Positions 6,634 to 43,532 of a DNA stretch of 64,000 nucleotides are shown here, one piece after another. The notes beneath the pieces are model-generated. The model saw nothing but the letters and a program-made list of their open reading frames with translations, was not told the DNA's origin and ran no database searches. Numbering within the stretch: position 1 is the stretch's first letter; each line of letters begins with the position of its first letter. The position numbers were made by a program, and so were the translations under genes. The stretch is taken from assembly GCA_017642585.1 (NCBI GenBank), contig JAGCOR010000026.1, positions 7,776-71,775 of the forward strand. The letters run 5' to 3'. The DNA is from Alphaproteobacteria bacterium (lineage in GTDB: Bacteria > Pseudomonadota > Alphaproteobacteria > Rs-D84).

Positions 6634-6707
6634 GCACTATGTTTTTATTGACATATTTATTATTTGTGTTATGCTATACGTAACAAGACAAACCAAAAGG
6701 AAATGAT

Positions 6708-7130: not shown

Positions 7131-7140
7131 TAACAACAAT

Positions 7141-7170
7141 AAAAAAACCGCCAATTCGGCGGTTTTTTAT
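7141..7170. terminator. bidirectional rho-independent terminator between convergent genes
   Basis: AAAAAAACCGCCAATTCGGCGGTTTTTTAT: a perfect hairpin flanked by an A-run and a T-run. Confidence 0.6.
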
Positions 7171-7176
7171 TTGATT

Positions 7177-8976: not shown

Positions 8977-9199
8977 TTAATAATCCTTTTACGTTATGGG
9001 TGTACGAAATGGACATGACACGTTCCCATGGGGCATCCACGCCCATGCCAAGGATGCATGCAATGGTAACCAACAGCACGACTCGCATCATAGTAAAAAG
9101 TGATAACACAAACACTATATTACCCCATCTTATACAACTTGTATAAGATAACAGATGCAATATATAAAGGCAAGTTTTTTTATTTTTGGAAAATAAATT

Positions 9200-10192: not shown

Positions 10193-10313
10193 ACCTTTTC
10201 TCTTATGGGGGAAATCATAGCAACATACGAAATAAAAATCAAATCAAATAAATTACTGTTTGGTTTTACACTGTTTTTATGATAAAATATACACAAAACA
10301 AAGGAGAGTTGTA

Positions 10314-11438: not shown

Positions 11439-11442
11439 AATT

Positions 11443-11474
11443 AAAAATCCCGATTTAATATCGGGATTTTTTTT
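11443..11474. terminator. bidirectional terminator
   Basis: AAAAATCCCGAT TTAATA ATCGGGATTTTTTTT. Confidence 0.6.
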
Positions 11475-13263: not shown

Positions 13264-13322
13264 GATTATTTTCCCTGTTTACAGGGCCAATCATAACAAC
13301 TTATAATTATTTAAGCAATCTT

Positions 13323-15080: not shown

Positions 15081-15099
15081 ACAGCCCTCCCCCGTCGCT

Positions 15100-17914
<2,815 letters not shown>

Positions 17915-28991: not shown

Positions 28992-29659
28992 ACAAAATAA
29001 AATCTTTTTTCTTGGGGATTTTATTATTGGCTATGACAATTGCCAGTATCGGGGTTGTCACATTGGTTTATCGTGCAAACGAACAAATATCTGTTAAATC
29101 TTATATTTTTCAAATGGGAAATTTTGCCAACGAACGTGTTGGTTTGTTACAAAATATAAATGATATATCTGTGATTGGTTTAAGAAACAGTTTGATTAAA
29201 AAATATGTTTCCGAATATTTCAAAGTTATTCCTGGGGAAAGTGATGTTACAAATCGCCCTGCTTTGCGTCAATTATCAAGTTCTGCGGCATACAGCCAAT
29301 GGGTATCAGGCGAAGCAAAAATAATTGAAGAAATGTCACGAAACAAAATGTTTAGAATGGTTTGGGTTTCAGACGAAGGTATAATACCTATGAATATGCC
29401 TGCTGACCATGATTATGCCCAAGCAATTATATCAGAAGATATATATTACGCAGTTCATTATGAAACAACAACTTGGCGGGAATCTAATTTTATGGCGGTT
29501 GAACCTGAAACAGAACATGGTGTATTATATATCGAAGCACGCTTTAAACCTGGCATCAACAAAAACCAAGATGTAAAAAAATATCTGGAAGCTGGGAAAG
29601 ATCCTGCGGGGTTATTTATGTTTAAAGTAACACACATAGGAAGTAAAGGAATAAAATGA
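28988..29659 (+). CDS. VirB8-like paralog (bitopic, NTF2-like periplasmic domain)
   Basis: Same topology and size as the upstream VirB8; weaker motif conservation (NSLIKKYVSEYFKV). Confidence 0.45.
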   Translation: MNKIKSFFLGILLLAMTIASIGVVTLVYRANEQISVKSYIFQMGNFANERVGLLQNINDISVIGLRNSLIKKYVSEYFKVIPGESDVTNRPALRQLSSSAAYSQWVSGEAKIIEEMSRNKMFRMVWVSDEGIIPMNMPADHDYAQAIISEDIYYAVHYETTTWRESNFMAVEPETEHGVLYIEARFKPGINKNQDVKKYLEAGKDPAGLFMFKVTHIGSKGIK

Positions 29660-30438
29660 TTAAAAAATTATTGATTTTATTATCGTTATGTTCCGCATTT
29701 ATTTGCACATCTGTATCATACGCAGAAGATGATATGGATTTTGATGAATTTGCAGTCGTAGACGACGAAGGCGAAGATATGAACACTGAAAGCGTTTCAC
29801 TAAACGAAGGCGATGGCCCTGTGGATGTGAAACAATTTGATATTGCGGGTATAATGTTGGGTATGGGATATGAAGAAATAAACAATCTGTTTTTTGAAAA
29901 TCCGTCATTGTATGCTCCACGCAGAAAAAACAGTGTGATTTATACGATAAACCAAGATTGGAAATATAATTTAGATTATGAATGTCGGCAAAACAATGTG
30001 TTCTTGCCTGAAAAATTGGAAAAATGTATTTATTCCCTGGCTCGCAATCGTGGTTTGCTGTATGTATCCGAAGTGCATTTGGTTCGTGATTTTACGGGCG
30101 AAACCATTGATGTATATTTTACCAGCAATGCAACAGATAACAAAGTATGGAAAGTCGTTTATAATAATGATGTAGACAAAGTGGATGGTCCATCGGCTGT
30201 GTATGCCAATCAACGCGAAAAAAAGATTTTGTCTTTCTGGCAAAGTGTTGTATCAAAATATGGTTCACCTAATTCTGACCAAGATAAATGGATTTCATCA
30301 GAAAACGCCTATGATCCAATGATGCGTGCATATTATGGACAATTGGTTTTGACAGATAATGGTTTAAATGCAACAGATTCTGCCAAAAACATCCAGGCTG
30401 CACGTGATAAATTCCAGGCAAAACCATATGCGTTCTAA
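29656..30438 (+). CDS. hypothetical secreted acidic protein
   Basis: Signal peptide MIKKLLILLSLCSAFICTSVSYA, acidic N-terminal region; no VirB9 motif recognised. Confidence 0.4.
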   Translation: MIKKLLILLSLCSAFICTSVSYAEDDMDFDEFAVVDDEGEDMNTESVSLNEGDGPVDVKQFDIAGIMLGMGYEEINNLFFENPSLYAPRRKNSVIYTINQDWKYNLDYECRQNNVFLPEKLEKCIYSLARNRGLLYVSEVHLVRDFTGETIDVYFTSNATDNKVWKVVYNNDVDKVDGPSAVYANQREKKILSFWQSVVSKYGSPNSDQDKWISSENAYDPMMRAYYGQLVLTDNGLNATDSAKNIQAARDKFQAKPYAF

Positions 30439-30781
30439 AAAAACATCTTATCAAATTGGTTTATTTTCTGAATTTTTAGCACGCTGGTATTTGCGCTTTC
30501 GTGGATATCATATTTTAAAAAGTCGATATGTTACTGGCAAAAACACTAATCGTGCAGAAATTGATATAATCGCAAAACATAAAAACACTATTGTTTTTAT
30601 CGAAGTAAAATCACGACAAAGTATTTCTGCGGCATGGGATGCGATTACTCCAACCCAATCGGCCAGATTACGTCGTGCCGCAGAAACTTTTCTTATAAAT
30701 TCACATTGGACAGGTGATGCAAGATTTGATGTGATAATTGTTTGCGGTCATAAAATATATTGGTCCAAAAACGCAATTTAA
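30428..30781 (+). CDS. YraN/UPF0102 family endonuclease-like protein
   Basis: MRSKKTSYQIGLFSEFLARWYL...GKNTNRAEIDIIAKHKNTIVFIEVKSR pattern typical of UPF0102; start at the internal ATG 30428. Confidence 0.65.
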   Translation: MRSKKTSYQIGLFSEFLARWYLRFRGYHILKSRYVTGKNTNRAEIDIIAKHKNTIVFIEVKSRQSISAAWDAITPTQSARLRRAAETFLINSHWTGDARFDVIIVCGHKIYWSKNAI

Positions 30782-31038
30782 TTTTTTATAACTGCACTTT
30801 TTATCAATGTGACATCTTCTTTGATACCGTCTATTTTTAATTGTAATTGTCCTATACCCGATTCAAGAATCGTGGTTCTGTTTTCTAATGATGTTATTCG
30901 CTGGTCTTGGCGTTCTAATTCGTTAAGTGAAGAATCTTGACGTGCAACCCAATAAATTGCTCCTGTGATAACAGCAATTAAAAACCAACCATCACGAATA
31001 ATCTCTAAAAAATTACTTATTTTCTGTTGTTTTTGCAT
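30778..31038 (-). CDS. small membrane-anchored coiled-coil protein (phage module, function unknown)
   Basis: One TM helix (WFLIAVITGAIYWVA) then a coiled coil; last gene of the phage-like operon. Confidence 0.35.
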   Translation of the reverse strand: MQKQQKISNFLEIIRDGWFLIAVITGAIYWVARQDSSLNELERQDQRITSLENRTTILESGIGQLQLKIDGIKEDVTLIKSAVIKN

Positions 31039-31040: not shown

Positions 31041-31241
31041 TTATGTTGGGTTATTCCCTTTGTTTATTAAATTTTCTATGTAATGAACCAATGCACTTTG
31101 CGCTGCCCACCAACGCAAATCATTGTCAGTTATGTTTTGCCCCACCGTTCGTTCAATGGTCAAAGAACGCAGATGTTTTAAAACACATTGCCCATCAATG
31201 CTGGCAAACGTTCTGGCGTATTGTTTTTCCAATTCAGACAT
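31041..31241 (-). CDS. hypothetical small protein (phage module)
   Basis: 66 aa ORF tightly packed between the portal gene and the next gene. Confidence 0.3.
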   Translation of the reverse strand: MSELEKQYARTFASIDGQCVLKHLRSLTIERTVGQNITDNDLRWWAAQSALVHYIENLINKGNNPT

Positions 31242-31257: not shown

Positions 31258-32481
31258 TTATATTAACATTTCTTCGTGTGCCATTTGTGCAATCGGGGCA
31301 ACATATTTTAATTCAGCATCAGAATGCAAAGATATTTGTTCTATCAATCCGCGTCTGGATAATATTTGCAATCCACGTTCACACATAGGCTTTATAAATT
31401 CGTGTAACAGGCGACCATATGTAGCACCTAAAATTCTAACCATATCTGAATTGCGTGCCAATATTTCAGTGGCGGTCATTTCTTTGTCTGATAACAACCC
31501 CAACCTGTCCGCCAATAAAGTGTGTCTGATTCTGTCGCGTAAATCGCGTAATACAATTTGCGAAACATCAAAATCAGCACCACTGGATAATGGGGTTAAA
31601 CCTGAACTGCCCACAGCTTTTGGAATAATTGCCCCCGGTGTTAAATTTATATTGGACAGATTTATAACACCATCATCATCCGCCTGCCATATACCGCTGA
31701 CCGCGATAGTCGCATTTTTTAAAACTAATTCCACAACTTTGTTGGCTGTTTTGATATCTGGCAACGCGCGCAATACTGGTCCACGACCATATGTTTCACC
31801 ACTGACCAAAGACCAACGGAAAATTATATATGGGTTGGTTTCAAATGTTCCACGTGAAACAATATTGTTTTCAAAATCGCCACCTACATCCAACCACGCA
31901 GTAAAATCATTTCCATCTAAACATTGAACCAATTTAATTGGTGTGTCTGGGTTGTTTTTTATAGTTTCCTGTAATTGTTTTGGAAAAACAAAATGCGGAT
32001 ATTTTTCAACAATTTCATTTGCAGGCATAGATGTCGTATGAAATACCATTCCCGGCAACAAAGCGATATTTGTCATAGGAATCGCAGTGAATGAAAATGC
32101 AGAATCTGCACCGATTGGATTTTCTGCCATAAACAAACAAGCAGTTCCCAACACAACCAAATCAATATAGCATTGATGAATTGTCGTATAAAAATTTGAA
32201 TCATTTAAATGTGCACGAAAAACAGATGTTGCATGTTCTGCATCTGGGGATAAATCACTTTCTTTGATAAAATTCACCCACAAAGATTCAGGTGGGGTCA
32301 ACAAAGAATACATAGAAGCAGCCAAATTATCCACTGCATCTGCCGCAGTCGCGTCAAATAAAGTTGCTGATTCTGTATCGTCCATTGGAATTGTGTATCG
32401 CATTGCTGTTTTCCAACGATTTAACCATATTTCGCGTTCATTTAATGCGCGTTTATATAATTGCATAAGATTTTTTTGCAT
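31258..32481 (-). CDS. T7 gp8-like head-to-tail connector (portal) protein
   Basis: RWKTAMRYTIPM...NLAASMYSLLTPPESLW and GETYGRGP align by eye with T7 gp8 (CAQYTIPSL...NLASKLMLALFPMQTW, GESYGRS, as recalled); 407 aa. Confidence 0.7.
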   Translation of the reverse strand: MQKNLMQLYKRALNEREIWLNRWKTAMRYTIPMDDTESATLFDATAADAVDNLAASMYSLLTPPESLWVNFIKESDLSPDAEHATSVFRAHLNDSNFYTTIHQCYIDLVVLGTACLFMAENPIGADSAFSFTAIPMTNIALLPGMVFHTTSMPANEIVEKYPHFVFPKQLQETIKNNPDTPIKLVQCLDGNDFTAWLDVGGDFENNIVSRGTFETNPYIIFRWSLVSGETYGRGPVLRALPDIKTANKVVELVLKNATIAVSGIWQADDDGVINLSNINLTPGAIIPKAVGSSGLTPLSSGADFDVSQIVLRDLRDRIRHTLLADRLGLLSDKEMTATEILARNSDMVRILGATYGRLLHEFIKPMCERGLQILSRRGLIEQISLHSDAELKYVAPIAQMAHEEMLI

Positions 32482-32498: not shown

Positions 32499-33347
32499 TT
32501 ATATTTTGAAATCTGTGTTTGCATGTATCAGTTTGTTGCCAAACGTCACAGGTCTGATTGTGCCAGGATTCATCATCAAAGCCCCTGCAACCGCATCCAA
32601 ACCGTCATCATGTTCTGTGGAACCAATCGGTGTCCAAGCCAACATTTCTGACAACAACATTGTTTGTTTAATTTTGTTGTGCATAAATAACCTGCCCGTG
32701 TTTAACACAGGTTCTATGGCATTTAAAATTCTGGTTTCTTTCTTGGTGTGATTTGCAATTTGAACTATGTTTATTTGCAGATTATGTTTATCGGCAACAC
32801 GTCGCATTATTTCAGGCAACGCATTACCCAGTCCGTTTATTTCTATCCCCACACGATATATTTTATGTTTTTGCATAAAATCTATAATTTTGTCGCATTG
32901 GGTAGACAAGGGATGTAAATCATCATCGTCTACAACCATATACATAATGTCATGAACAAAAACGGTTTTGTTTTTATCATCCCTGTACACTAATACACAT
33001 ACACTGCCATCTGCCCTGTTGTATCCAGATGACGGATCCCAATACATTGAAACCCCAGTTATACAATGTTGCCCGATTCGACATAATTTTGTATCGAAAT
33101 CATCATCATAAAACTGTAAAGCCCCTGGATCCAAATAAACACGTTCTTCGGGGACATATTCCAACATCATTTGGGCTGAAAAATGTCTGGGGCCGACAAT
33201 TCTTTCCAGTTCATGTATTTTTTCGATTGGAAACATTTCTGGCCATGCTGAATTTCCAGCACTGTCAACAATAGGTATCTTTAATTGTTTATAGCCACTT
33301 AAAAAATGTATTGAATTATTAAAATTTTCGTTTAATCTAAAAGACAT
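32499..33347 (-). CDS. large terminase subunit, C-terminal nuclease fragment (T7 gp19-like)
   Basis: SAWPEMFP, GPRHFSAQMMLEYVP, MYWDPSSGYNRADGSVCVLVY and HDDGLDAVAGAL match recalled T7 gp19 IWPALYP, GKAGFTLQFMLNPNL, VIDPSGRGKDETGYAV and HDDRLDALALGI; possible own start MSFRL at 33347 with a GGAG Shine-Dalgarno (track ORF extends to 33527). Confidence 0.75.
   Translation of the reverse strand: MSFRLNENFNNSIHFLSGYKQLKIPIVDSAGNSAWPEMFPIEKIHELERIVGPRHFSAQMMLEYVPEERVYLDPGALQFYDDDFDTKLCRIGQHCITGVSMYWDPSSGYNRADGSVCVLVYRDDKNKTVFVHDIMYMVVDDDDLHPLSTQCDKIIDFMQKHKIYRVGIEINGLGNALPEIMRRVADKHNLQINIVQIANHTKKETRILNAIEPVLNTGRLFMHNKIKQTMLLSEMLAWTPIGSTEHDDGLDAVAGALMMNPGTIRPVTFGNKLIHANTDFKI
33270..33282. repeat. 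left copy of a 12/13-bp direct repeat AATAG(G)TATCTTT flanking the cassette inside the terminase gene
   Basis: Near-identical copy at 36659-36670; both lie at the homologous break point of the terminase coding sequence. Confidence 0.4.
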
Positions 33348-34896
33348 GAACTTTACTCCAAAAACATTACCAATGAACCTGGAAGCAGAACAAGCAGTTC
33401 TGGCTGCCGTTTTTACCAGCAGTCGTGCACTGGAATTGATATCTGATTTCTTGTTGCCGGAACATTTTTCACACCCTGCGCACCAAGAAATATACAGATA
33501 TGCCATGCGTGTATTTGCAACTGGCAAGATTGTTGATGTAATTTCTGCAAAAAACTATTTAGAACAACAGGGCGCATTGGAAAGTGTTGGTGGACCTGAT
33601 TATTTGACTAAATTAGCATCTGCGGGTGCAACGGTTGTAAATGTTGAACATTATGCCCGTATAGTTTTTGATAATGCCCGCCGTCGTGATTTAATCAATA
33701 TTGGTCAATCTATTGTTGATAACGCATATCAAGAAGATTTGGATGTAACCGTTGATAACCAGGTTGAAACTGCTGAACAGAAATTGTTTAATTTGGCATC
33801 TACTGGTCAATCTGAACAAAATATGGTATCTTTGGCCCAGGCATTAAAAGGTGCTTTGAAAGAAGCAGAATATGCCTATAAAGCCGAAGGCAAATTGTCA
33901 GGTTTAACCACAGGTTTGGATGAACTGGATAAATCTATCAGTGGTTTGCACCATTCCGATTTAATTATTATAGCTGGTCGTCCAGGTATGGGTAAAACCA
34001 CATTGGCTATGAATATTGCGTTTAATGCGGCCAATGCTATATACAACAAACGCGCAAATGATAAATACCAAGGCGCTGTTATATTCTTCAGTTTGGAAAT
34101 GTCCAACGAACAATTGGCGGCACGTGTTTTGTCATCTCAATCAAAAATACCTGCATCCAGAATTCGTGACGGTCATTTAACCGACGAAGATTTTATGACG
34201 ATGTCACAATATTCAGACGCCCTGTCAAAATTACCATTGGTTATTGATGATTCTGCTGATGTGTCTGTACCTATGATAAAAACCCGTGCACGCAGAATTG
34301 CCCGTAAATTCGGCGGGGTTGCATTAATTGTTATCGACTATTTACAGTTGATGAAATTGCCAGGCGGCAAAAGCAACGAAAACCGTGTGCAAGAATTGTC
34401 TGAAATCACCCGCAGTTTGAAAATCTTAGCAAAAGATTTGGATGTTCCTGTGATTACCCTGTCACAGTTATCACGTAGTGTTGAACAACGTGATGATAAA
34501 CGCCCGGTATTGTCAGATTTGCGTGATTCTGGTTCTATTGAACAGGATGCGGATATCGTTATGTTCACTTTCCGTGAAGAATATTATCTGGACGGACACG
34601 CACCAAGCAATAAATTATCCAGTAACGCATCTGAAAATTCTATGCAACATTACCACAATCGTCTTGAACAATCCAGAAACAAGGCGGATGTTATCATTGC
34701 TAAAAACCGTCATGGTAAACCAGAAACTGTGCATTTAAGCTTCTTTGGCGAATATTTCTTGTTCGATAATTTGGCACAATTTAATATGCAACCTGCCCCC
34801 CAGGATATGAACGAACAACCTGTATTTGCGCCAACACCATCACCTGACGAACAAGCGGATTCATCTGTCGGTGATGCACCTGACGACATGCTTTAA
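33346..34896 (+). CDS. dnaB: replicative DNA helicase (DnaB family) with a C-terminal acidic/Pro-rich tail
   Basis: N-terminal LEAEQAVLAAVF..., Walker A GRPGMGKTTLA, Walker B IVIDYLQLM, SRSVEQRDDKRPVLSDLRDSGSIEQDAD; embedded in phage DNA on the strand opposite the structural genes. Confidence 0.85.
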   Translation: MNFTPKTLPMNLEAEQAVLAAVFTSSRALELISDFLLPEHFSHPAHQEIYRYAMRVFATGKIVDVISAKNYLEQQGALESVGGPDYLTKLASAGATVVNVEHYARIVFDNARRRDLINIGQSIVDNAYQEDLDVTVDNQVETAEQKLFNLASTGQSEQNMVSLAQALKGALKEAEYAYKAEGKLSGLTTGLDELDKSISGLHHSDLIIIAGRPGMGKTTLAMNIAFNAANAIYNKRANDKYQGAVIFFSLEMSNEQLAARVLSSQSKIPASRIRDGHLTDEDFMTMSQYSDALSKLPLVIDDSADVSVPMIKTRARRIARKFGGVALIVIDYLQLMKLPGGKSNENRVQELSEITRSLKILAKDLDVPVITLSQLSRSVEQRDDKRPVLSDLRDSGSIEQDADIVMFTFREEYYLDGHAPSNKLSSNASENSMQHYHNRLEQSRNKADVIIAKNRHGKPETVHLSFFGEYFLFDNLAQFNMQPAPQDMNEQPVFAPTPSPDEQADSSVGDAPDDML

Positions 34897-34964
34897 ATTT
34901 ATTTCTTGCCAAACTTATATTTTTTGACTATTATTTTGTCAACACATCTTCAAGGAGGTTTAAT

Positions 34965-35972
34965 ATGGCACAAGAAGAAATCATATTTCCTAATAACATA
35001 CGAAACATACGTGCTGCCAAGGGTATGAAAATGACCGAACTGGCCAGACGTGCCAATTTATCTTTGTCTGCTGTTTCCAAGATTGAAAAAGGCGTCAGAC
35101 GATTAAACCAAAAACAATTATTGAATGTGTGCAGCATATTGGGTTGCAAATTATCTGATATATTTATTCACGAATCAGATACTGTTGCAGATCAATGGCA
35201 AAACGAAATTAAACGCCGTTTGACTGACAATGAAAAAAGCGGTTTGAAAGTTTTCGGTTCTGGTTTGCGTAAAATCCGCCAACGTGCAGAAAAAACTATC
35301 GCAGAAACCGCGAAGGCTGCAAAAATGACATTGTCTGTTTATCATAAAATCGAAGTTGGTCAACGCGAAATTTATGAAAACGAAATTGAAGTTTTGGCAA
35401 AAACTTTTGGTTATACCACCGAACAATTATTTGATGAAATCGCAAATCTGTACAAGGCTGGCGAATTAACAAAACAAATCAACAAAGTTAAAGAACGCGT
35501 AAAATCTGTTTTGGAACCGGGTAATCCTGTATCTGGTTTGGACATCCAAGACGGTTTATATGGCGCACAATTATATGACAATGCCAGAAAAAAATTGGTT
35601 CCTGTGTTTGGAAAACCAAATGGCAAAGAAATTTCTTTGAAAAAATCAGACGAAAATATGATTGTCGCACCAAGTACATTGGAAGGTTTGGTCAGTGTTT
35701 ATGCTGTCGTTCCAAATGCAAAACGTTTGGGTGGTTTTATCCCAGAAACTTCTTATGTATTTGTTGATGCTGATTCAACACCAGAAGTTGGTGATTTGGC
35801 AATGTTCATTGATGCAGATTTTTCAAAAATGACATCTGATGATGTCGCATCTGCACAAATTGCCGTTGTGCGCCAGGATACACATGGTAAAAAATATGGT
35901 CATGTGTCCAATCCAGACGACAAAATCAATTATAAAACTATGCACAAAGTTATTATGATTGTAATGAAATAA
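34965..35972 (+). CDS. XRE-family regulator with two HTH domains and a degenerate CI/LexA-like C-terminal domain
   Basis: Two HTH_3-like segments (MKMTELARRANLSLSAVSKIEKG; KTIAETAKAAKMTLSVYHKIEVG); the C-terminal beta-rich domain lacks the S24 Ser nucleophile. Confidence 0.6.
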   Translation: MAQEEIIFPNNIRNIRAAKGMKMTELARRANLSLSAVSKIEKGVRRLNQKQLLNVCSILGCKLSDIFIHESDTVADQWQNEIKRRLTDNEKSGLKVFGSGLRKIRQRAEKTIAETAKAAKMTLSVYHKIEVGQREIYENEIEVLAKTFGYTTEQLFDEIANLYKAGELTKQINKVKERVKSVLEPGNPVSGLDIQDGLYGAQLYDNARKKLVPVFGKPNGKEISLKKSDENMIVAPSTLEGLVSVYAVVPNAKRLGGFIPETSYVFVDADSTPEVGDLAMFIDADFSKMTSDDVASAQIAVVRQDTHGKKYGHVSNPDDKINYKTMHKVIMIVMK

Positions 35973-35997
35973 CAATGTCAATTTGTAGGGGGGGCAT

Positions 35998-36663
35998 ATG
36001 CAACAACAAACCGCACATACGATTGCACAGCGTTTATTAAACCTTTATCGCCAAGCACATGTTATTAATGGTGGTTGGATGGCTGTTAACCAGGTTTTAT
36101 TGAACGAATCAAACGATCCCCGTGTCATAGAAGAACTTGAAAAATTGCCTACAGGAAAAAGGCTTGCTATGCATATCAGCAATTTAAAGTCTGGCAAAAC
36201 CCCTATGAACACCATTGATAAAGATTTATTGCCATACGGCGGTTTAATCATGGGTCAAGATACAATTATAACTTTAACGCCCGATGAATTAAAAGAGTTA
36301 CAAACCGCACTGGCATCTTTTGAACCAACCACCGAAGGATTAAACAAGATAAAAAAATTATCATGTGTTAAAAAATTCGGTAACGACTGGTTATACAGCA
36401 TCAAATCGGCATTAAACGACCACCCAGAAATAGCATCAAAATGGGCTGATGTTGTTCGTACAGAACGTGCTTATACTATGTGGAACAGTGCGCGCCAATT
36501 GATATCCGAAGATTTAACAGAACGTGACCGTGCCAGAATCCAGGTTGACATGCCAGATTTTGAAACATATTTACCTATGTTTGGCGAACCAGGCAAAGAA
36601 GTGTTGGCAAAACTGCGTACATTTATGTCTTCGGTTGCACCTGCTGTCAAATCTGATAAATAG
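35998..36663 (+). CDS. hypothetical protein (possible helicase-loader or accessory protein, speculative)
   Basis: 221 aa ORF, last gene of the cassette; its stop overlaps the terminase N-fragment stop. Confidence 0.35.
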   Translation: MQQQTAHTIAQRLLNLYRQAHVINGGWMAVNQVLLNESNDPRVIEELEKLPTGKRLAMHISNLKSGKTPMNTIDKDLLPYGGLIMGQDTIITLTPDELKELQTALASFEPTTEGLNKIKKLSCVKKFGNDWLYSIKSALNDHPEIASKWADVVRTERAYTMWNSARQLISEDLTERDRARIQVDMPDFETYLPMFGEPGKEVLAKLRTFMSSVAPAVKSDK

Positions 36664-37285
36664 TATCTTTGGTGTGTGGTGTCCCTATAAAAATCATTGT
36701 TCCGCGCGGGGATAAAATAAAATCTAATTCCCGTAATCTTTCACGAAGATTATTTCTTTTTTGCAAAGTGTTGCATGTATTTGGGACTTCTACGTCATCG
36801 CATATAATTAAATCAGATCTCATACCTGTTATATTTCCAGAAATTCCCTGACATATAACCGAAGGTTCCCTGATTCCTATAGGGCGTTTAATAGTAATTT
36901 TATGTGTTCCCCACTCTTTTTTGACATCAGGCAAAATATCACTGCACCACGGATGGTTTTCCAAAATATTTTTTACATGTGAAACCATACGCGATGACAA
37001 TCCAGATTCTGCTGACAATATCAATATTCTGGTTTCTGGTCGATAATATAATACACACGCTGCGAAAATCCCAACAACAGTTGATTTTCCAGAATGCCTG
37101 AACGCTGTCAATAATCCACGTCGCGGTTCATTATTAAAAACATCCACTAAAAATTCCAGTATCTGTTTATGGTGTTTCGGCGTTTCAAAACCCAAAATTT
37201 TATTCCAAGCATTTAAGAAATCAAAGGCTTCCGTAATCGTCAGATTGTTCATTGTCTGCTGTTTCTGTAACAGAACCATAATCAT
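36647..37285 (-). CDS. large terminase subunit, N-terminal ATPase fragment (T7 gp19-like)
   Basis: LTAFRHSGKSTVVGIFAACVLYYRPETRILILSAE, GISGNITGMRSDLIICDDVEVP and MIFIGTPHTKDTIY match recalled T7 gp19 [47 protein letters not shown] and VIYLGTPQTEMTLY; ends 3 codons after the conserved GTPxT motif. Confidence 0.8.
   Translation of the reverse strand: MIMVLLQKQQTMNNLTITEAFDFLNAWNKILGFETPKHHKQILEFLVDVFNNEPRRGLLTAFRHSGKSTVVGIFAACVLYYRPETRILILSAESGLSSRMVSHVKNILENHPWCSDILPDVKKEWGTHKITIKRPIGIREPSVICQGISGNITGMRSDLIICDDVEVPNTCNTLQKRNNLRERLRELDFILSPRGTMIFIGTPHTKDTIYQI
36659..36670. repeat. right copy of the direct repeat AATAGTATCTTT
   Basis: See 33270..33282. Confidence 0.4.
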
Positions 37286-37769
37286 TTATTAAATTTGGTA
37301 ATGCCTGGTCCAGAACATTAAGCAAATTATTATACAGCCCCAATACAGAACCTCCTGATAATTTGTCTTCTATTAACCCCAGCAAATAATTTATTTGATA
37401 CAATACATTGTTGTGTGTGTTTGCCCATTGACTTAAATCTATATTTATACTTTGAATATCATGCAACGCAGCGATTAAAAAATTAAAATCAGAATTCAAA
37501 TCTTCTGGGTCTATCTTTGCAGTCGGTTGATAATCGATTACTCTGGATAATGATATTTGCCGGAAAATATCTATTTGCGTTCCGTTTGCTGGTGCAGTTG
37601 CAAATACCACCAAACCACCATTAAAATCATTATCAGGGTTCACATCATATTGCGAATCATCTAAAACAACATTGTCTATCGCGACTTTAATATCTGCATT
37701 TTGAAAAAAAGGGAAATTAAAAACAAATTCCGTATCATTGCCATTTCCCGTATATGATATTTTATACAT
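37221..37769 (-). CDS. tail fiber N-terminal (tail-attachment) domain protein, T7 gp17-N-like stub
   Basis: MYKISYTGNGNDTEFVFNFPFF resembles T7 gp17 N-terminus VLTYQLDGSNRDFNIPFEY (recalled); only 182 aa, no receptor-binding region. Confidence 0.55.
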   Translation of the reverse strand: MYKISYTGNGNDTEFVFNFPFFQNADIKVAIDNVVLDDSQYDVNPDNDFNGGLVVFATAPANGTQIDIFRQISLSRVIDYQPTAKIDPEDLNSDFNFLIAALHDIQSINIDLSQWANTHNNVLYQINYLLGLIEDKLSGGSVLGLYNNLLNVLDQALPNLINDYGSVTETADNEQSDDYGSL

Positions 37770-37778
37770 GAATGCCCC

Positions 37779-38126
37779 CTATCCTGCTATTTTATCTATC
37801 TGCGACAGCCACTTTTTCAATAAATTAGGTTTTGTTGTTTTTATCTTTTTTAAATTTTCTATGCTTGTTTTATTTTTTTCATCATATGGTTGTGCAGTTT
37901 CATCACGCAATCTTTTTAATACCGCGTTTTCAGACAAACCATCACCAGCATTGCCAGACGCTCCGTATTTTGCGCGTTGTCCCGCCAATACTTTTTTTAT
38001 TAAATTATTTTTCGCTGTTTCATTTTCAGCCATTTGTTCCAATATTTTTTGACGTTGGTTGCCTGCTTTCTTCTTAGATTCTTGATAATCCAGAATTTGC
38101 GTTACGTCAGATACCAATTGTCCCAT
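37779..38126 (-). CDS. hypothetical lysine-rich protein (phage module)
   Basis: 115 aa ORF between tail tubular B and the fiber stub. Confidence 0.35.
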   Translation of the reverse strand: MGQLVSDVTQILDYQESKKKAGNQRQKILEQMAENETAKNNLIKKVLAGQRAKYGASGNAGDGLSENAVLKRLRDETAQPYDEKNKTSIENLKKIKTTKPNLLKKWLSQIDKIAG

Positions 38127-38144
38127 AAAAAACTCCTTTTGTTT

Positions 38145-39857
38145 TTATATTGAATACCAACCCTCTGTAGTCACAGACAATATTGTCGCGCTTAATTGTT
38201 CACTGCTGGACAAAGTCCACAAAGGTTGAATTGTATCGGCCTGTATACCCAGCAAATTTAATGACAAATCCCCGCTGTAACCAAGGTTATCGTTTGAATA
38301 AACAACATTTGGTATTTCAATTCTGTAATCATTTGCAAATAATGTTTTTGTGTTTATCACACGCACAGATATTTTTCTGGTTCGTATTTTCTTTGGACAA
38401 TGTCCATTTACAACCATAGGCACAGCCGATATTTTATATGAAAAACCATATTGGGTTGCGTCTTTCAAACAAGATGCATCAAATTTTTCAAGATAATGAT
38501 TGCCTTTTCTTTTTACAATAACATAAGTTGAATCATCTAATACACAAACATATTTGAATTCGCCGTCTGTTTTATATGTTCCCCACGCAGAAATATCTGT
38601 ATTTGGATATTTATGTAATACGGCCATATATCCGCTTTGCATAACAACAAACAATTGATGTGTGTTTTGGTTATAAGAAACACTGACCGGATTTTGCATA
38701 AGATGTTTTGCATACAAACATAAATCTGTAGCGTTGTAATTTTCACCCAATGCATCTAAATCTAATTCACGAATATCTTTGCCTGATTCAGAAATGAAAA
38801 CTGTGCTACCTTCTATTTGCTGTGGAGGCAAATATCTTGTCGCAATACTGCCGACAGATGTATGTTGTTTAATATTGACATTTGATGGTGTTAACGGGGA
38901 ATTTGAAATCGACCATTCGCCCACAGATGTCAAAATCTGCAACGAATCACTGCTGACAATTGTACAAATTTGATGGTGTTGTGCAGATAATAAAGCTGCA
39001 TAAATTGCTTCATCATCTAAACCTGTGCCAGAATCAAAATTATGAAAATCAGAAACTTTGGACATCCATATACAATTCGGCAAAGCATGTGTTCCGCCAA
39101 AAACTAATCTGTTTTGATGGAAAGATACACATGATGGCCATCCGCGTCTGTTGTTAAACACAGATTCATACCAATCGTATATTGGACCTTGGGCTAATGT
39201 AAAATTACCATTTGTATAAACAGTAACAGCCGTAGCACTTTGAACGCTGGCAACAACCCATTGTCTGTTGTCCACATATAATCTTTCACCCACAGCATTT
39301 TCAGGCCAAAAATCTGCATTTGTTGTAAATGTAGCGTAATTGGTATCTATGTCGCTGCTGGACATTGTTATAGTGATATTTTTCGAATCTTCAAAACGCG
39401 TAAACGGTATATTTACACTGGCATCTGAATTGGAAGAAAAATTAAAATCAGTAAAACCAAAACCACTGGCTGTTTTTGTAAATATCACAGGTTTATAATC
39501 TGGATGAACAAAAAATATAGAATTAAATCTTTGTGCATATTGTAATTTTGCCAAATCAGCACGTTTCCACGGCGCAATCATTGTCGTTATTTTGGTATCA
39601 TTACAATATATATCCATAGAAATATTGTATATAACCAACAAATATTTTTCTGATTCTGTAATTGGAAACGGCACAATTATTGCATCTTGGTATGTATTAC
39701 CTATGCTTTTTAACCCACTGCGTCTGGTTAAACCGCCTGATTTTAATACATCTGTATTTTCCAACACAGATAACCCGTTTGCATTATTCAATGCGTAAAA
39801 TTCAGAAGACACTTCCCCACAAGCAAATGAATTTTGTGTTTTAATAAAATTACCCAT
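38145..39857 (-). CDS. tail tubular protein B (T7 gp12-like), shortened
   Basis: FHQNRLVFGG...SKVSDFHNF resembles the gp12 FFFRNRLGFLSG...AKYFNFY segment (recalled); sits downstream of a gp11-like gene; 570 aa. Confidence 0.55.
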   Translation of the reverse strand: MGNFIKTQNSFACGEVSSEFYALNNANGLSVLENTDVLKSGGLTRRSGLKSIGNTYQDAIIVPFPITESEKYLLVIYNISMDIYCNDTKITTMIAPWKRADLAKLQYAQRFNSIFFVHPDYKPVIFTKTASGFGFTDFNFSSNSDASVNIPFTRFEDSKNITITMSSSDIDTNYATFTTNADFWPENAVGERLYVDNRQWVVASVQSATAVTVYTNGNFTLAQGPIYDWYESVFNNRRGWPSCVSFHQNRLVFGGTHALPNCIWMSKVSDFHNFDSGTGLDDEAIYAALLSAQHHQICTIVSSDSLQILTSVGEWSISNSPLTPSNVNIKQHTSVGSIATRYLPPQQIEGSTVFISESGKDIRELDLDALGENYNATDLCLYAKHLMQNPVSVSYNQNTHQLFVVMQSGYMAVLHKYPNTDISAWGTYKTDGEFKYVCVLDDSTYVIVKRKGNHYLEKFDASCLKDATQYGFSYKISAVPMVVNGHCPKKIRTRKISVRVINTKTLFANDYRIEIPNVVYSNDNLGYSGDLSLNLLGIQADTIQPLWTLSSSEQLSATILSVTTEGWYSI

Positions 39858-39875: not shown

Positions 39876-40394
39876 TTAAAATCTTGAATTTATCAAAGAA
39901 AAATTATCTATGTTTGATTGATTTAAAATCGTGCTGTCTATGAATTTTGCAGATTGATATTCTGATTCATACAAAATATTCATCATTTTAAAGATATTCA
40001 TATCTCCAATCAAAGGAACACAAAATTCCACAGCCAATTTAGATGCAACCAATGATGCAAAATAGCCCGGAAAATTTTCTGGTTCTGTTTTTACAATCGC
40101 AATAATTTCTATTTTTTCGGCTGCGGCAATTATCTTGTTTCCAACGATTTGACCAGGATGTTTAATTATGCGTAATACATTGGTGGGTATAATAAAATCA
40201 CCATTTGAATCTTTGGTTAATTCTATGTTTTGTAATGCAAAATGCCATGGAAATGTCGACAACAAAGTATCAACAACCGAATCAAATAAACTTCTGGCCA
40301 ATTGAGCAGGTGCAGAATCTTCACGCAAAGATTGAATTGGCTTTTCGCCTAACTTTAACAAAGCCATTGAACATAAATCTATTTTTGTAAACAT
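39876..40394 (-). CDS. tail tubular protein A (T7 gp11-like)
   Basis: IDLCSMALLKLGEKPIQSLRED..AQLARSLFDSVVDTLLSTFPWHF versus recalled T7 gp11 [41 protein letters not shown]; 172 aa. Confidence 0.6.
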   Translation of the reverse strand: MFTKIDLCSMALLKLGEKPIQSLREDSAPAQLARSLFDSVVDTLLSTFPWHFALQNIELTKDSNGDFIIPTNVLRIIKHPGQIVGNKIIAAAEKIEIIAIVKTEPENFPGYFASLVASKLAVEFCVPLIGDMNIFKMMNILYESEYQSAKFIDSTILNQSNIDNFSLINSRF

Positions 40395-40467: not shown

Positions 40468-40698
40468 TTAAGACAAAGCAGCAACTGTTATAGCATCAGC
40501 TGTAACACTTAATACTTTGATTGATGTTCCATTTGAACCATTAATTAAAATGATATCGCCTGTATTCATCAAAGATTTTACACTGGCAAAATATCCAGAT
40601 GCAGTTATTGTCGCCAATGTCGCATTTTCTTTATAATGCCACAATGTAAAACCATTTGCGTATGCAATCACAGACAAATTTTTATTTTGAAATGCCAT
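40468..40698 (-). CDS. hypothetical small protein downstream of capsid
   Basis: 76 aa ORF with no motif, tightly packed. Confidence 0.3.
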   Translation of the reverse strand: MAFQNKNLSVIAYANGFTLWHYKENATLATITASGYFASVKSLMNTGDIILINGSNGTSIKVLSVTADAITVAALS

Positions 40699-40734: not shown

Positions 40735-41562
40735 TTAGGCTGCATCATCATCACATTTAATACGAACGATACCTTCTGCATCAATCAACACAGCGCCTTG
40801 GGACATACTGTTGCTGATGAAATGCGCAGCACGTTCGCCATGCCATGTAATATCAGTTTTAACTTCTTGACCACAGGCATGACCAATGCTGGATGCATGA
40901 TAAATGAAACAATCACGATCATCTGTGTTTGCCAAAGGCAAAGAATTGCACAGAATCCAATTGATACCCAACCATCTTCTTGATTCACAACCATCAACCA
41001 AAGGTGTTGAACCACCGACATAATCAGCAGATACAAATTCATTCATACCCATCAATTCATTCCATTGATGAACACCAACGACTGCATATCTGCGACCGTC
41101 ATCTGGAACGTCATTTTCGTTTAATTTTTCAACAGCACTCATAATCAATGCTTTTGTTAAACCTGTTGAATAATCGCCAACATATTGGGTTGCATTGTTC
41201 ATCGCAGCGATGATTAATTCATCTGTTTTACGACCCAATGCATATGCACCGGCTGATGCAACAACACGACGTTCATCAACATTGGTTTTCAATTCATCCA
41301 AAGCATCAATCCAATCGCCTGCGTAATAATCTTGCAAAGTGCATTCCACAGGTGTGTGATTCAAATTCATCACTGGAACAATACCATGACGTGATTTAGT
41401 ACTGGCAATTCCTTTGCCAACTTTTTGGAAAGTTGTTGAAGTTCCAACAACGCCAGATTTACTGCGAATTGTGGAACGCAATTTTGTGCCCATTTGCTGA
41501 TAAGCCAAATGAACATCTGCTTCAAATTGTTTTATAAACACTTGATCTACAGATAAAGACAT
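40735..41562 (-). CDS. major capsid protein (T7 gp10-like)
   Basis: VFIKQFEADVHLAYQQMGTKLRSTIRSKSGVVGTSTTF versus recalled T7 gp10 LFLKVFGGEVLTAFARTSVTTSRHMVRSISSGKSAQF; start MSLSV at 41562 with an AAGGA Shine-Dalgarno (track ORF extends to 41655). Confidence 0.65.
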   Translation of the reverse strand: MSLSVDQVFIKQFEADVHLAYQQMGTKLRSTIRSKSGVVGTSTTFQKVGKGIASTKSRHGIVPVMNLNHTPVECTLQDYYAGDWIDALDELKTNVDERRVVASAGAYALGRKTDELIIAAMNNATQYVGDYSTGLTKALIMSAVEKLNENDVPDDGRRYAVVGVHQWNELMGMNEFVSADYVGGSTPLVDGCESRRWLGINWILCNSLPLANTDDRDCFIYHASSIGHACGQEVKTDITWHGERAAHFISNSMSQGAVLIDAEGIVRIKCDDDAA

Positions 41563-41793
41563 AAAAAATCCTTTTTGTTTTTCTTGTAAAAAATTACGCC
41601 AAAACGGCAACATATTTTGAAAAATGGTTATACGAAAAATCGCGCCATAAAACAAAATTCAAAAGTCAGGGTCCACAAAATGGATTATCCAATAAAAGAT
41701 TCAGTCAGACACAAAATCTGACTGAAAATTTTATCAAAAAACCCCAAAACACTTATGCTTTGGGGTTAAAAATGATACATAATTAATGTATTA

Positions 41794-42114
41794 TTATTTT
41801 TTCTTTGCAACTTTTTTTGCAGGTTTTTTTGCAGCAACTTTTTTTGCAGGAGCTTTTTTAGCAACTGGTTTTTTTGCTACAACTTTTTTTGCAGGAGCTT
41901 TTTTAGCAACTGGTTTTTTTGCAACAACTTTTTTTGCAGGTGCTTTTTTAGCAACTGGTTTTTTTGCTACAACTTTTTTTGCAGGTGCTTTTTTAGCAAC
42001 TGGTTTTTTAACTGCAACTTTTTTTGCAGGTGCTTTTTTTGCTGCTGGTTTTGCAGCTACTTTTTTAGCAGCTGGTTTTGCGCAAGCACATTTTTTCTTA
42101 GAACCAAAGAACAT
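41794..42114 (-). CDS. lysine/alanine-rich histone H1-like repeat protein
   Basis: 106 aa, about 45% Lys, with repeating KKAPAKKVVAKKPVA units; strong AAGGAGA Shine-Dalgarno 6 nt before the ATG. Confidence 0.6.
   Translation of the reverse strand: MFFGSKKKCACAKPAAKKVAAKPAAKKAPAKKVAVKKPVAKKAPAKKVVAKKPVAKKAPAKKVVAKKPVAKKAPAKKVVAKKPVAKKAPAKKVAAKKPAKKVAKKK
41812..42070. repeat. 45-bp tandem repeat, ~4.5 copies (coding; encodes the 15-aa KA repeat)
   Basis: Unit GCAGGAGCTTTTTTAGCAACTGGTTTTTTTGCTACAACTTTTTTT repeated at 41846, 41891, 41936 and 41981 with 1-2 substitutions per copy. Confidence 0.75.
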
Positions 42115-42218: not shown

Positions 42219-42875
42219 TTATGAATATAATTTTTTAAATCCGTTTTCTATTTTTCTTACATACTCCGGATCTTGATCACGCCAATATTTTGGATTCTTC
42301 ATCATGTTGCGTAATTCATCATCAGTTAAATTTTCATCACCACTTTTGTTTGTAAAAACTTCTGGTTCCATTGATTGCATCATCTTGTATATGCCTTGAA
42401 TTCCCTGGGGTGTAGAGCATAGTTCATCAAACGCAGATGCAGGTAAAAACTTTTCACCAAATGCATTTATCTCTTTCAATGCATCATTCATTTTTTGTGT
42501 TGAACCAAAAAAATTTTTTAATTCATTTATTGCATTTGTTTCATTTTGCATTTCAAATAAATTTTTTATCGCAGGTTGTAAAAAATCTTCTGCAATTTGA
42601 TAAATTGTTTCAACTTGTTTTGATGTTAAACCAATTTCATGAAATTTTTCACGCACCGATTCGTCATCAAATAAACTGTTTGTTGGATATTCTGATGCGT
42701 TATCCGGTACACCAATTGCGCGATTAAATTTTTGTTTAGTTGAATCATCACTATCCGCAGATGGTACAGATATCATCGTTCCCATCTTTTTTTCTAATTC
42801 ACAATACGATTTAATCAACGCAGATGTATTTAATTCACCATTTTCATTTAGAAATTTTTCTGGAACCTGTTCCAT
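42219..42875 (-). CDS. capsid scaffolding protein (T7 gp9-like)
   Basis: Acidic; C-terminal ELRNMMKNPKYWRDQDPEYVRKIENG versus recalled T7 gp9 SEMIKAMSDPRYRTDANYRRQVEQKV; position upstream of capsid. Confidence 0.55.
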   Translation of the reverse strand: MEQVPEKFLNENGELNTSALIKSYCELEKKMGTMISVPSADSDDSTKQKFNRAIGVPDNASEYPTNSLFDDESVREKFHEIGLTSKQVETIYQIAEDFLQPAIKNLFEMQNETNAINELKNFFGSTQKMNDALKEINAFGEKFLPASAFDELCSTPQGIQGIYKMMQSMEPEVFTNKSGDENLTDDELRNMMKNPKYWRDQDPEYVRKIENGFKKLYS

Positions 42876-43065
42876 TGTTTTTTCCTTTTGTTGAAGATTC
42901 TTGTTTCAAAAAATAGATACCACCCAACATAAAAATTGTTTGCAACATTGAAAAGATATCTTGTTCCCCAATTAAATAAGCACCTATGGCAGAAATTATT
43001 CCAACACTTGAAACGACATAGGTTTTGCGCCCTTTCAAATATCCGCCATTTATAAATTTGTTCAT
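42844..43065 (-). CDS. small membrane protein (hypothetical)
   Basis: 73 aa ORF with one predicted TM helix; overlaps the scaffold start by 32 nt. Confidence 0.3.
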   Translation of the reverse strand: MNKFINGGYLKGRKTYVVSSVGIISAIGAYLIGEQDIFSMLQTIFMLGGIYFLKQESSTKGKNNGTGSRKISK

Positions 43066-43085: not shown

Positions 43086-43532
43086 TTATAAATAAAATAA
43101 GATATCATCTATCTCTGCAATATAACCACGTGACATGGCCCATTGTGGCATAACATCTGTGTGATGAAATTTAGTAGCACCAAAAACCAAATCTCGCAAA
43201 GCGCCATTCATCATTTTTTGAACAACGCGTAAACACATTTGAAATTTTTTATCTTTTGCATTTACATTTAATAAATGATTTCGTTTTGAATTATCATTTA
43301 ACACTTCAAAAATATTTGCATCATTCGCAATATCTTCAAAAGATTTATCATATTTTATATGTATGTTATAAATCATAGAAGAAAAAGCTTCGACCAAATG
43401 CAGAGATTGTGCCAAAGTTTCTGCGTAAACAATGCGCGATAGTTTATATAATACAATTTTTGTATTATCCGGATTTTCAATCAAAGTTAATTGCATGTTA
43501 AGACCTGTTTGGGTTATAAAAAAAACGCACAA
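43086..43532 (-). CDS. hypothetical protein (first gene of the phage-like operon)
   Basis: 148 aa ORF with no motif. Confidence 0.35.
   Translation of the reverse strand: MCVFFITQTGLNMQLTLIENPDNTKIVLYKLSRIVYAETLAQSLHLVEAFSSMIYNIHIKYDKSFEDIANDANIFEVLNDNSKRNHLLNVNAKDKKFQMCLRVVQKMMNGALRDLVFGATKFHHTDVMPQWAMSRGYIAEIDDILFYL

Follow-up and report, generated by a model that had tools for sequence, protein, structure and literature searches.

A T7-like morphogenesis module of 12.8 kb and 16 genes lies in a stretch of 64,000 nucleotides from the chromosome of an alphaproteobacterium of the order Rs-D84 (assembly GCA_017642585.1, contig JAGCOR010000026.1, positions 7,776 to 71,775 of the forward strand). 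This stretch, at its full length, is called the window below, and coordinates refer to it unless another locus is named. The module is of phage origin. It comprises a complete set of genes for head, portal, terminase, and tail nozzle together with lysis-type genes, carries no mobility genes, occupies a fixed chromosomal position, and has descended vertically under purifying selection. It probably encodes a domesticated particle that resembles a gene transfer agent (GTA), is of the T7 type represented by BPP-1 and the pelagiphage HTVC010P, and has a minimal tail; the module would stem from an ancestor of the Enterousia/Rs-D84 lineage and have been inherited vertically since then. Production of the particle, packaging of DNA, release from the cell, and entry of the DNA into recipient cells would then be expected.

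Conservation and Descent of the Module

Loci for comparison were the best 80 of the 468 species-representative genomes of GTDB that contain relatives of the nozzle protein, tail tubular protein B (tube B); each was taken with flanks of ±10 kb, giving 1.6 Mb with the window. They belong to metagenome-assembled genomes (MAGs) labelled as Candidatus Enterousia or as uncultured gut, rumen, or faecal Alphaproteobacteria, and one of them (L059) is a circular long-read chromosome of 958,618 bp. Enterousia is a member of Rs-D84. Its genomes are smaller than 1 Mb, with a coding density of ~90% and without accumulation of pseudogenes, and the bacteria are predicted to be obligate symbionts or parasites (PMC12306168).

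Gene order is identical in essentially all 80 loci, from lipB through to the portal gene, g66, and g86, at amino-acid identities of 50–97%. After lipB comes operon A (minus strand), which contains, in order of transcription, the genes for a cell-wall hydrolase, g73, the scaffold, a histone-like protein, the capsid, g76, tail tubular protein A (tube A), tube B, g115, a fibre stub, which is not present in every locus, and the N-terminal half of the large terminase subunit (TerL-N). An operon on the opposite strand follows, with the genes for a 221-amino-acid protein (g221), a double-helix-turn-helix (HTH) regulator, and DnaB. Operon B (minus strand) then contains the genes for the C-terminal half of the terminase (TerL-C), the portal, the Bbp19-like g66, and g86, a membrane-anchored coiled coil. 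The position of the module between lipB and yraN/bamA is fixed in the 80 genomes.

The same gene junctions are present in 80 independent genome assemblies, including the circular chromosome, and in 61 contigs from IMG/VR. This recurrence excludes an assembly error, and with it the possibility, foreseen in the earlier note on this DNA, that adjacent core or fibre genes had been hidden by misassembly. The 61 IMG/VR contigs (L083–L143, ~10 kb), which are classed there as proviruses, share the architecture of the module. A 5-kb contig from human faeces, deposited in GenBank as "Bacteriophage sp." (MT838907.1), encodes a capsid protein that is 63% identical; given this origin, relatives of the module may also occur in the human gut.

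Median identities are 81% for the capsid and 79% for the portal, compared with 70% for DnaB, 78% for LpxI, and 61% for LipB. Over 61 genomes, pairwise distances computed for six module proteins follow those of DnaB plus LipB (Mantel r 0.85; reached in 0 of 999 permutations). Since the identities grade over the whole range from 50 to 97%, recent horizontal spread of one sequence is excluded. Ratios of nonsynonymous to synonymous substitution rates (dN/dS; Nei-Gojobori method, NG86, medians of nine close pairs) range from 0.015 to 0.15 among the module genes, which is comparable to the neighbouring housekeeping genes (DnaB 0.029, LpxI 0.051, LipB 0.056). The module is vertically inherited under purifying selection and fixed in the chromosome.

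The Reduced Tail

Three genes of operon A lie between the tube A gene and the terminase (aa, amino acids):

38145–39857, minus strand: tube B, or nozzle, gp12-like, 570 aa (phrog_376, E 4.8e-83; AF2 model searched with Foldseek)
37779–38126, minus strand: g115, 115 aa, ~17% lysine, in the position of T7 gene 13/14 (orphan family)
37221–37769, minus strand: fibre stub, 182 aa, with a gp17-type anchor (~aa 1–100), a helical region, and an acidic C-terminus (PF03906; PHROG families; AF2 model searched with Foldseek)

The earlier note had stated that only a lysine-rich open reading frame (ORF) of 115 aa and a protein of 182 aa separate tube B from the terminase, and this is indeed the arrangement, with all of these ORFs on the minus strand. 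The AF2 model of the nozzle (mean predicted local distance difference test, pLDDT, 70.6) matches the nozzle chains of Carin-1 (E 2e-23), LME-1 (E 4.5e-21), and T7 gp12 (E 1e-11 to 1e-9) in Foldseek. The protein is ~220 aa shorter than T7 gp12 and the other podovirus nozzles that it matches. More than 1000 homologues with 63–97% identity were found, on contigs of up to 320 kb; nearly all measure 568–571 aa (range 568–580), and dN/dS of the gene is 0.055. The nearest cultured phages are those of the Hodr/HTVC010P type, MEP301, and BPP-1, with identities of 24–30% in tube B and of up to 42% in the capsid.

All window ORFs of at least 100 aa outside overlapping shadow ORFs, and the small ORFs of the module, were scanned against Pfam, PHROGs, or both, and among them no gp14-, gp15-, or gp16-like protein, lytic transglycosylase, tailspike, distal fibre, or small terminase subunit (TerS) was found. 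Likewise, the core, fibre, and TerS proteins of Hodr, MEP301, and BPP-1 gave no tblastn match in the window and the ±10 kb flanks of the 80 loci, save for the fibre N-domains, which match the stub; the 349-aa fibre of Hodr aligns to it over up to 188 residues. In Hodr, genes for proteins of 159, 783, and 1247 aa directly follow the nozzle gene. In MEP301 and BPP-1, it is followed by internal virion proteins, including an SLT enzyme, and then by the fibres, and both phages possess a TerS. On these searches, the claim that the gp14–16 core and the distal fibre are absent is upheld. That a T7-style ejection of DNA would not be expected from such a particle is a reasonable inference from the biology of T7.

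The match of the stub to PF03906 (aa 4–93) scores 25.4 bits against a cut-off of 25.2. The match to phrog_1640 has an E-value of 2.9e-18, and twenty PHROG fibre families match the same ~100–120 N-terminal residues. Its sequence profile also matches LME-1 orf22 (E 1e-5). In the AF2 model, residues 1–72 have a pLDDT of ~90 and are followed by helices of low confidence. Foldseek places this model on the fibre N-domain of LME-1 (E 2.6e-7), on T7 gp17 (7boz and 7ey9; E 1e-3 to 6e-3), and on the fibre N-domains of Carin-1, HRP29, and P-SCSP1u. Beyond the anchor, only ~80 residues remain, with predicted helices and an acidic tail; a long trimeric shaft and a C-terminal receptor-binding tip are missing. 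The identification as the attachment domain of gp17 and nothing more, which the earlier note had offered in advance for refutation by modelling, came through this comparison in Pfam, PHROGs, and structure alike.

The short form of the stub is a stable one rather than the result of a recent truncation, since 120 listed homologues, from a total of 556 found, all measure 178–185 aa. In an alignment of the family, 43 of the 183 columns are invariant, among them columns of a C-terminal stretch that lies past the anchor and contains two DYG motifs, and dN/dS is 0.079. Of 78 scorable loci, 56 contain the gene and 22 (28%) do not; by tblastn, it is found in 57 of 80. In loci without it, TerL-N starts at most 48 bp after g115, and in the closely related pair L016 and L005 the stub is cleanly deleted with the reading frame of the terminase kept. 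In a neighbour-joining tree of 75 taxa, presence of the stub is the ancestral state; 12 changes are needed under parsimony, and the gene has been lost at least 12 times. The other module genes in the stub-less clades have dN/dS values of ~0.02–0.2, estimates which are made conservative by dS being near saturation. Purifying selection on the rest of the module has persisted through at least 12 losses of the stub, which is hence dispensable, or accessory. The function that is selected would therefore seem to need only the adaptor (tube A), the nozzle, and g115 at the tail.

The remaining tail gene, g115, has no matches in Pfam, PHROG, or NCBIfam. When 1.84 billion representative proteins were searched exhaustively with HMMER, its family amounted to only 42 clusters, 41 with lengths of 41–151 aa and one of 225 aa; the core motif that they share can be written NL[IV]KKxLAxQRAKYGAxG. 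The gene is present in 80 of 80 loci with a dN/dS of 0.085. By position, g115 would be the only candidate for a plug or for a role like that of gp13 or gp14. It was also considered as a diverged internal virion protein, an option that was dropped after negative hhalign comparisons with MEP301 gp27 (E 0.4) and BPP-1 bbp12 (E 0.16). A weak, transitive link connects it to a 146-aa protein encoded after the nozzle gene in Roseomonas (hhalign E 0.029; BLAST via P0282), which is described below. In the locus L052, from a MAG labelled Rickettsiales (Gx481_bin12), an extra ORF for a 106-aa multi-pass membrane protein is inserted between g115 and the stub (positions 8265–8585 of that locus). This ORF is unrelated to TerS or a distal fibre, and a remnant of either is ruled out.

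The Split Terminase and the dnaB Operon

The large terminase subunit has its domains distributed over two genes, which are 3.1 kb apart and enclose the dnaB operon:

36647–37285, minus strand: TerL-N, N-terminal half with the ATPase core (NF033889 positions 4–189 of 500, 215 bits; phrog_38 positions 274–458)
33346–36663, plus strand: operon separating the two halves, with dnaB (33346–34896), the double-HTH regulator (34965–35972), and a 221-aa protein without assignment (35998–36663)
32499–33347, minus strand: TerL-C, C-terminal half with the lid and the RNase-H-like nuclease (PF22530; phrog_38 positions 483–707; NF033889 positions 333–500)

The earlier note had the terminase adjoining the stub. 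The adjoining gene, which begins within the 3′ end of the stub gene, encodes the N-terminal half of a T7-type terminase only, and the nuclease half and the portal are found 3.1 kb further on. TerL-N ends in "...GTPHTKDTIYQI" and stops exactly where unsplit relatives continue. Compared with these relatives, the two halves abut without any loss of sequence, and TerL-C adds a leader of 14 residues. The motifs of a large terminase subunit are present, i.e., Walker A (GKST), Walker B (CDDVE), and the coupling motif GTPH, which belong to the ATPase core in TerL-N, and DDGLDA. The values of dN/dS are 0.056 for TerL-N and 0.081 for TerL-C. The mechanical ORF of TerL-C (32499–33527, 342 aa) starts with a TTG codon; its 5′ extension is spurious, since stop codons occur in it in related loci, and the true start is the ATG at 33347 (Met61).

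The split is found in at least 77 related loci, and in at least 77 the dnaB operon keeps its position. The genes in this operon have dN/dS values of 0.03–0.06. In at least 70 of 77 loci, the start codons of dnaB and TerL-C overlap back to back in the sequence CATG (33345–33348 in the window). The dnaB product contains the Pfam domains DnaB and DnaB_C, and its best matches in the PDB are cellular DnaB proteins; this cellular-type dnaB is the sole replication gene in the module. Two other explanations for the interruption of the terminase were rejected. As to an intron, the Rfam matches in the window are limited to two tRNAs, and the insert consists of three genes on the opposite strand. As to an intein, the junction is without intein motifs. 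The only comparable gene layout known to us is that of the UL15 terminase gene of herpesviruses, in which two exons flank antisense genes.

The regulator gene next to dnaB is a candidate for the controller of the module. Its product has two HTH_3 domains and a C-terminal domain of ~150 aa without detectable relatives, and its dN/dS is 0.033. Weak NCBIfam matches include the double-HTH family of Wmk from Wolbachia WO. The idea that the C-terminal domain is a degenerate S24 (CI/LexA) domain, as in the regulator of the Roseomonas module, found no support in BLASTP and in a sequence search of the PDB.

Sister Modules

Relatives of the module outside the 80 loci were retrieved through IMG/VR, with identities of ~30% in tube B, 52–59% in the capsid, 42–45% in the portal, and 43–48% in TerL. 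Their capsids are closer to that of Rs-D84 than the capsid of Hodr, which at 42% leads among the cultured phages. One type, with high GC content, occurs in Acetobacteraceae of the genera Roseomonas, Neoroseomonas, Paracraurococcus, Siccirubricoccus, Belnapia, and Roseicella. It is found on contigs of up to 5.5 Mb, and its tube B proteins are 68–98% identical and measure 624–627 aa (one, 610 aa). In Roseomonas fluvialis (AP025637.1; L164, positions 4001–17606), a core-less T7-like module of ~13.6 kb contains an S24 regulator, three small genes, portal, scaffold, capsid, tube A, tube B, a 146-aa protein, a 759-aa fibre, an 87-aa protein, an unsplit TerL, and a Hydrolase_2 protein, in this order. 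It is located between host genes and is without an integrase or core proteins. Other loci of this type are L144, L146, L150, L152, L154–L157, and L159–L161.

A second type, with low GC content (34%), is represented by the IMG/VR metagenome contigs L148 and L149. The latter (positions 1–10243) encodes portal, scaffold, capsid, tube A, tube B, ORFs of 106 and 96 aa, an unsplit TerL, and a hydrolase; it lacks a fibre gene. The possibility that this 10-kb contig is a complete mini-genome with terminal repeats was dismissed, as such repeats were not found. The modules of Acetobacteraceae and of L149 are apparently undescribed.

The sister modules thus share with the Rs-D84 module the portal, scaffold, capsid, adaptor, nozzle, a small protein encoded after the nozzle gene, TerL, and a Hydrolase_2 protein, and like it they have neither core proteins nor an integrase. 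They differ from it in their unsplit TerL and in having the portal gene first, as in T7, and the Roseomonas module differs further in its 759-aa fibre and its S24 (LexA/CI-like) regulator, which hints at SOS control. Since the sister modules are also without the ejection core, its absence is a trait of the whole group of compact modules. Fibre content varies over this group from full length through the stub to none. Together with the lysis genes that flank the Rs-D84 module and the dispensability of the stub, these core-less relatives are a feature that the earlier note did not contain.

Head, Portal, and Lysis Genes and Their Surroundings

The other genes of operons A and B, listed in order of transcription, are:

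43086–43532, minus strand: SleB-type cell-wall hydrolase, putative endolysin, 148 aa, first gene of operon A (PF07486, E 3.8e-6; phrog_938, endolysin); in 65 loci, dN/dS 0.146
42844–43065, minus strand: g73, small protein with two hydrophobic segments and a charged tail, putatively holin-like from its own sequence features; in 65 loci, dN/dS 0.048
42219–42875, minus strand: T7-type scaffolding (capsid assembly) protein, 218 aa (PF05396, E 5.7e-9); dN/dS 0.096
41794–42114, minus strand: histone-H1-like protein with AKKP repeats, 106 aa, between scaffold and capsid genes (PF07382, HC2, E 2.8e-14)
40735–41562, minus strand: major capsid protein, 275 aa (PF19821, E 7.8e-73); dN/dS 0.015
40468–40698, minus strand: g76, small protein of the virion module (phrog_18004, E 3.2e-13); in 80 of 80 loci, dN/dS 0.032
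39876–40394, minus strand: tube A or adaptor, gp11-like, 172 aa (PF17212, E 4.1e-6; phrog_394, E 1.3e-27); dN/dS 0.053
31258–32481, minus strand: T7-type portal (head-to-tail connector), 407 aa (PF12236, E 8.5e-80); dN/dS 0.023
31041–31241, minus strand: g66, Bbp19-like small phage protein (PF25181, E 3.3e-6); in 74 loci, dN/dS 0.071
30778–31038, minus strand: g86, N-terminal membrane anchor and coiled coil, putatively spanin-like, last gene of operon B (weak match to phrog_736); in 74 loci, dN/dS 0.039

For the capsid, Met32 (41562) is the true start. The mechanical ORF (40735–41655, 306 aa) starts with TTG, and its 5′ extension is spurious because it is interrupted by stop codons in related loci. 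An ORF equivalent to the histone-like gene is present in 67 of 67 loci and ranges from 52 to 164 aa as the length of the repeat varies. Its product may be a head protein that condenses DNA. No family match for g73 was obtained in the Pfam and PHROG scans of the module ORFs. Lysis-type genes are thus situated at both ends of the module, i.e., those for the SleB-type hydrolase and for the small holin-like and spanin-like membrane proteins, which would act in lysis. The structural matches are all to T7-type or podovirus families, and siphovirus genes, such as those for a tape measure or a tail tube, were not found among them.

The module is flanked by ordinary host genes (bamA, yraN, lipB, mscS, lpxI, priA, miaA, and gap), and its GC content is in line with that of the flanks. 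In and beside it there is no integrase gene, phage-type replication gene, replication initiator gene, att-like feature, or nearby tRNA gene. Between bamA and yraN, a trio of ORFs (28296–30438, plus strand; 231, 223, and 260 aa) has no match in Pfam or PHROG, and it adjoins the module in one Enterousia clade only (30–34 of the 80 loci). At the end of the window (60548–64000, plus strand), an ORF of more than 1150 aa runs off the sequence. Its product has an N-terminal signal-like segment and no Pfam family and may be a surface protein of this bacterium with its reduced genome.

Proposed Function and Alternative Explanations

As a GTA-like particle, the module could work as follows. Both operons would be expressed in a subset of the cells, and T7-like heads would assemble on the portal and be filled with cellular DNA by a two-chain terminase. 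As TerS was not found, there is no recognisable factor for specificity in packaging. The adaptor, the nozzle, and g115 would close the particle, and the hydrolase and the membrane proteins would lyse the cell. The particle released would then act like a GTA, i.e., as a viriform. Entry of the DNA is expected to proceed without a T7-style channel across the envelope, because the three ejection proteins are missing both here and in the sister modules of Acetobacteraceae; it could instead make use of the uptake machinery of the recipient, as in RcGTA, or of factors encoded elsewhere. The stub would be an accessory collar or docking piece, conserved where it is present and unneeded for the function that is selected.

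Several points weigh against the module being a domesticated GTA-like element. All of the genomes are MAGs of uncultured bacteria, and the particle, its packaged DNA, the transfer of this DNA, and the function of the terminase as two chains are predictions from sequence. In the absence of TerS, an ejection protein, and a receptor-binding protein (RBP), the rules of T7 would preclude the usual start of packaging and the injection of DNA. A capacity smaller than the gene cluster, which serves as a criterion for a GTA, is not evident, since a head of T7 size (T=7, ~35–40 kb) could hold the 12.8-kb cluster. The search for missing genes covered the window and the ±10 kb flanks, and tblastn is insensitive for fast-evolving core proteins. 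Furthermore, the host markers in the analysis of co-divergence (DnaB and LipB) are physically linked to the module, and, in the more distant pairs, dS approaches saturation.

A rather unlikely alternative is that the GTA is complete, with its receptor-binding and ejection proteins encoded at other loci and the stub serving as an adaptor to which a trans-encoded tailspike or fibre docks. Podoviruses of the SP6/K1-5 type have such an arrangement, in which a short gp17-N-like fibre adaptor carries separate tailspikes. The invariant C-terminal region of the stub resembles an interaction surface, and the full fibre of the Roseomonas sister implies that cell binding matters in that lineage. Moreover, RcGTA and FpGTA keep fibre or RBP genes outside their main clusters; in FpGTA, ~125 kb separate the main operon from that for fibre/RBP and lysis (locus II), which 7 of 12 strains lack (PMC12946183). 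However, relatives of fibres, tailspikes, SLT enzymes, and core proteins were found neither in the window nor within ±10 kb in the 80 relatives, genomes of less than 1 Mb leave scant room for extra loci, and at least 12 deletions of the stub under continued selection fit poorly with its being the sole docking site. It is still less probable that the particle is kept for ends other than the delivery of DNA to kin, for example, to export or protect DNA that would serve as a public good or in a biofilm matrix, to release DNA by programmed lysis, or to interact with a partner organism that the hosts, with their reduced genomes, may rely on. The missing apparatus for adsorption and ejection, the dispensable stub, and the histone-like DNA-binding protein within the head operon would all agree with such a role, as would hosts that are predicted to be obligate symbionts or parasites (PMC12306168). 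Strong selection on the adaptor, the nozzle, and g115, in contrast, implies a gated exit channel and, hence, that controlled release of DNA matters; in addition, the sister lineage keeps a full fibre, and there is no positive evidence for another role.

The module might also be a phage satellite or mobile island, similar to a capsid-forming phage-inducible chromosomal island (cf-PICI), that takes fibres, ejection proteins, and replication from a T7-like helper phage. Its gene set, in which the structural core is present and ejection and adsorption are absent, would complement what a helper supplies, and IMG/VR classes the loci as ~10-kb proviruses. Yet, this explanation is very improbable, considering the absence of integrase, excisionase, replication initiator, and att-like repeats, the fixed position between lipB and yraN/bamA, the essential dnaB operon inside the module, and its co-divergence with host genes; besides, no close helper phage is known, as the best cultured relatives are 25–42% identical. 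The earlier note had left the choice between decay and a repurposed, non-infective particle. A functionless T7-like prophage remnant, with its missing tail genes as deletions on the way to total loss, might be suspected from the lack of early genes, core, distal fibre, and TerS, from the interrupted terminase gene, and from the loss of the stub in many lineages. Nevertheless, decay is refuted. In at least 80 species-level genomes, all 16 genes are intact and syntenic; their dN/dS values are 0.015–0.15, and they co-diverge with neighbouring host genes. Capsid and portal are conserved like DnaB, and the TerL halves keep their full sequence and motifs. In streamlined genomes of less than 1 Mb with ~90% coding sequence and no build-up of pseudogenes (PMC12306168), neutral DNA would not survive. 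The other half of the earlier proposal, a repurposed and non-infective particle, fits the evidence.

Returning to the domesticated GTA-like particle, a more far-reaching version of this reading is possible, though we would not count on it. The module could be an independent, T7-derived GTA that is ancestral to the whole order Rs-D84, with a sister version in Acetobacteraceae, and that moves DNA with adaptor, nozzle, and g115 only, in the absence of phage ejection proteins or fibres. The splitting of the terminase around the essential dnaB operon would lock the element in the chromosome and might even couple particle production to the control of replication.

If particles are made and carry DNA, they would represent a second lineage of GTAs in Alphaproteobacteria, unrelated to RcGTA and BaGTA, and the first T7-type GTA. 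A strong selective benefit can be argued from the fact that genomes of less than 1 Mb, which have discarded most biosynthetic pathways, still give ~1.3% of their length to the module. The minimal apparatus poses the question of what is the smallest short-tailed device that is still able to release or deliver DNA, and the natural variation in this group, from a full fibre through a stub to none, makes the question testable. A terminase that functioned as two chains throughout the radiation of a whole order would, if confirmed, be new. The sister module in cultured Roseomonas offers a route to experiments.

Comparison With Known Systems

The literature searched contained no description of a T7-like GTA from Alphaproteobacteria, nor of a T7-like or podovirus-like one from Rs-D84, Enterousia, or Acetobacteraceae. 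As regards T7 itself, the portal, scaffold, adaptor, and fibre N-domain belong to Pfam families named after T7 and the terminase to the T7 family of NCBIfam, the models of nozzle and stub superpose on the T7 gp12 and gp17-N chains, and the order scaffold, capsid, 11, 12, fibre, terminase is that of T7. Of the features of a T7-like virion, the portal, the gp11 adaptor, and the gp12 nozzle are present; early genes are not. In contrast to T7, the module has no equivalent of gp13–16, save for the unrelated g115, its fibre ends at residue 182, and its nozzle is ~220 aa shorter. It also has no TerS, its terminase consists of two chains, its portal gene comes after the terminase, and it is chromosomal, non-replicative, and vertically inherited. 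Hodr, MEP301, and BPP-1 share with the module the Bbp19-like g66 and the g76 family, but they differ from it in possessing at least three internal virion proteins, including the SLT enzyme, full fibres, TerS, and replication modules.

The stub is similar to the adaptors of the SP6/K1-5 type in being a short gp17-type anchor with a small C-terminal extension. It differs from them in that no gene for a tailspike partner was found and in that it is missing in 28% of the species. Unlike satellites of the cf-PICI type, the module has no integrase, excision, or replication initiator gene and is in the same position in 80 genomes.

The module is T7-like and not homologous to the RcGTA-type clusters (Rhodogtaviriformidae), which have an HK97-type capsid and a siphovirus tail. 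It deviates from established GTAs in its split terminase and in that no TerS was found, and, for it, random packaging and transfer of DNA are a prediction. The first and, so far, sole podovirus-like GTA to be described is FpGTA of Faecalibacterium, a member of the Firmicutes (PMC12946183). With this element and with RcGTA, BaGTA, and CcGTA, the module shares that it is a phage-derived cluster of head, tail, terminase, and lysis genes, fixed in the chromosome under purifying selection and free of genes for integration or phage-type replication; as in FpGTA, the fibre is the variable part.

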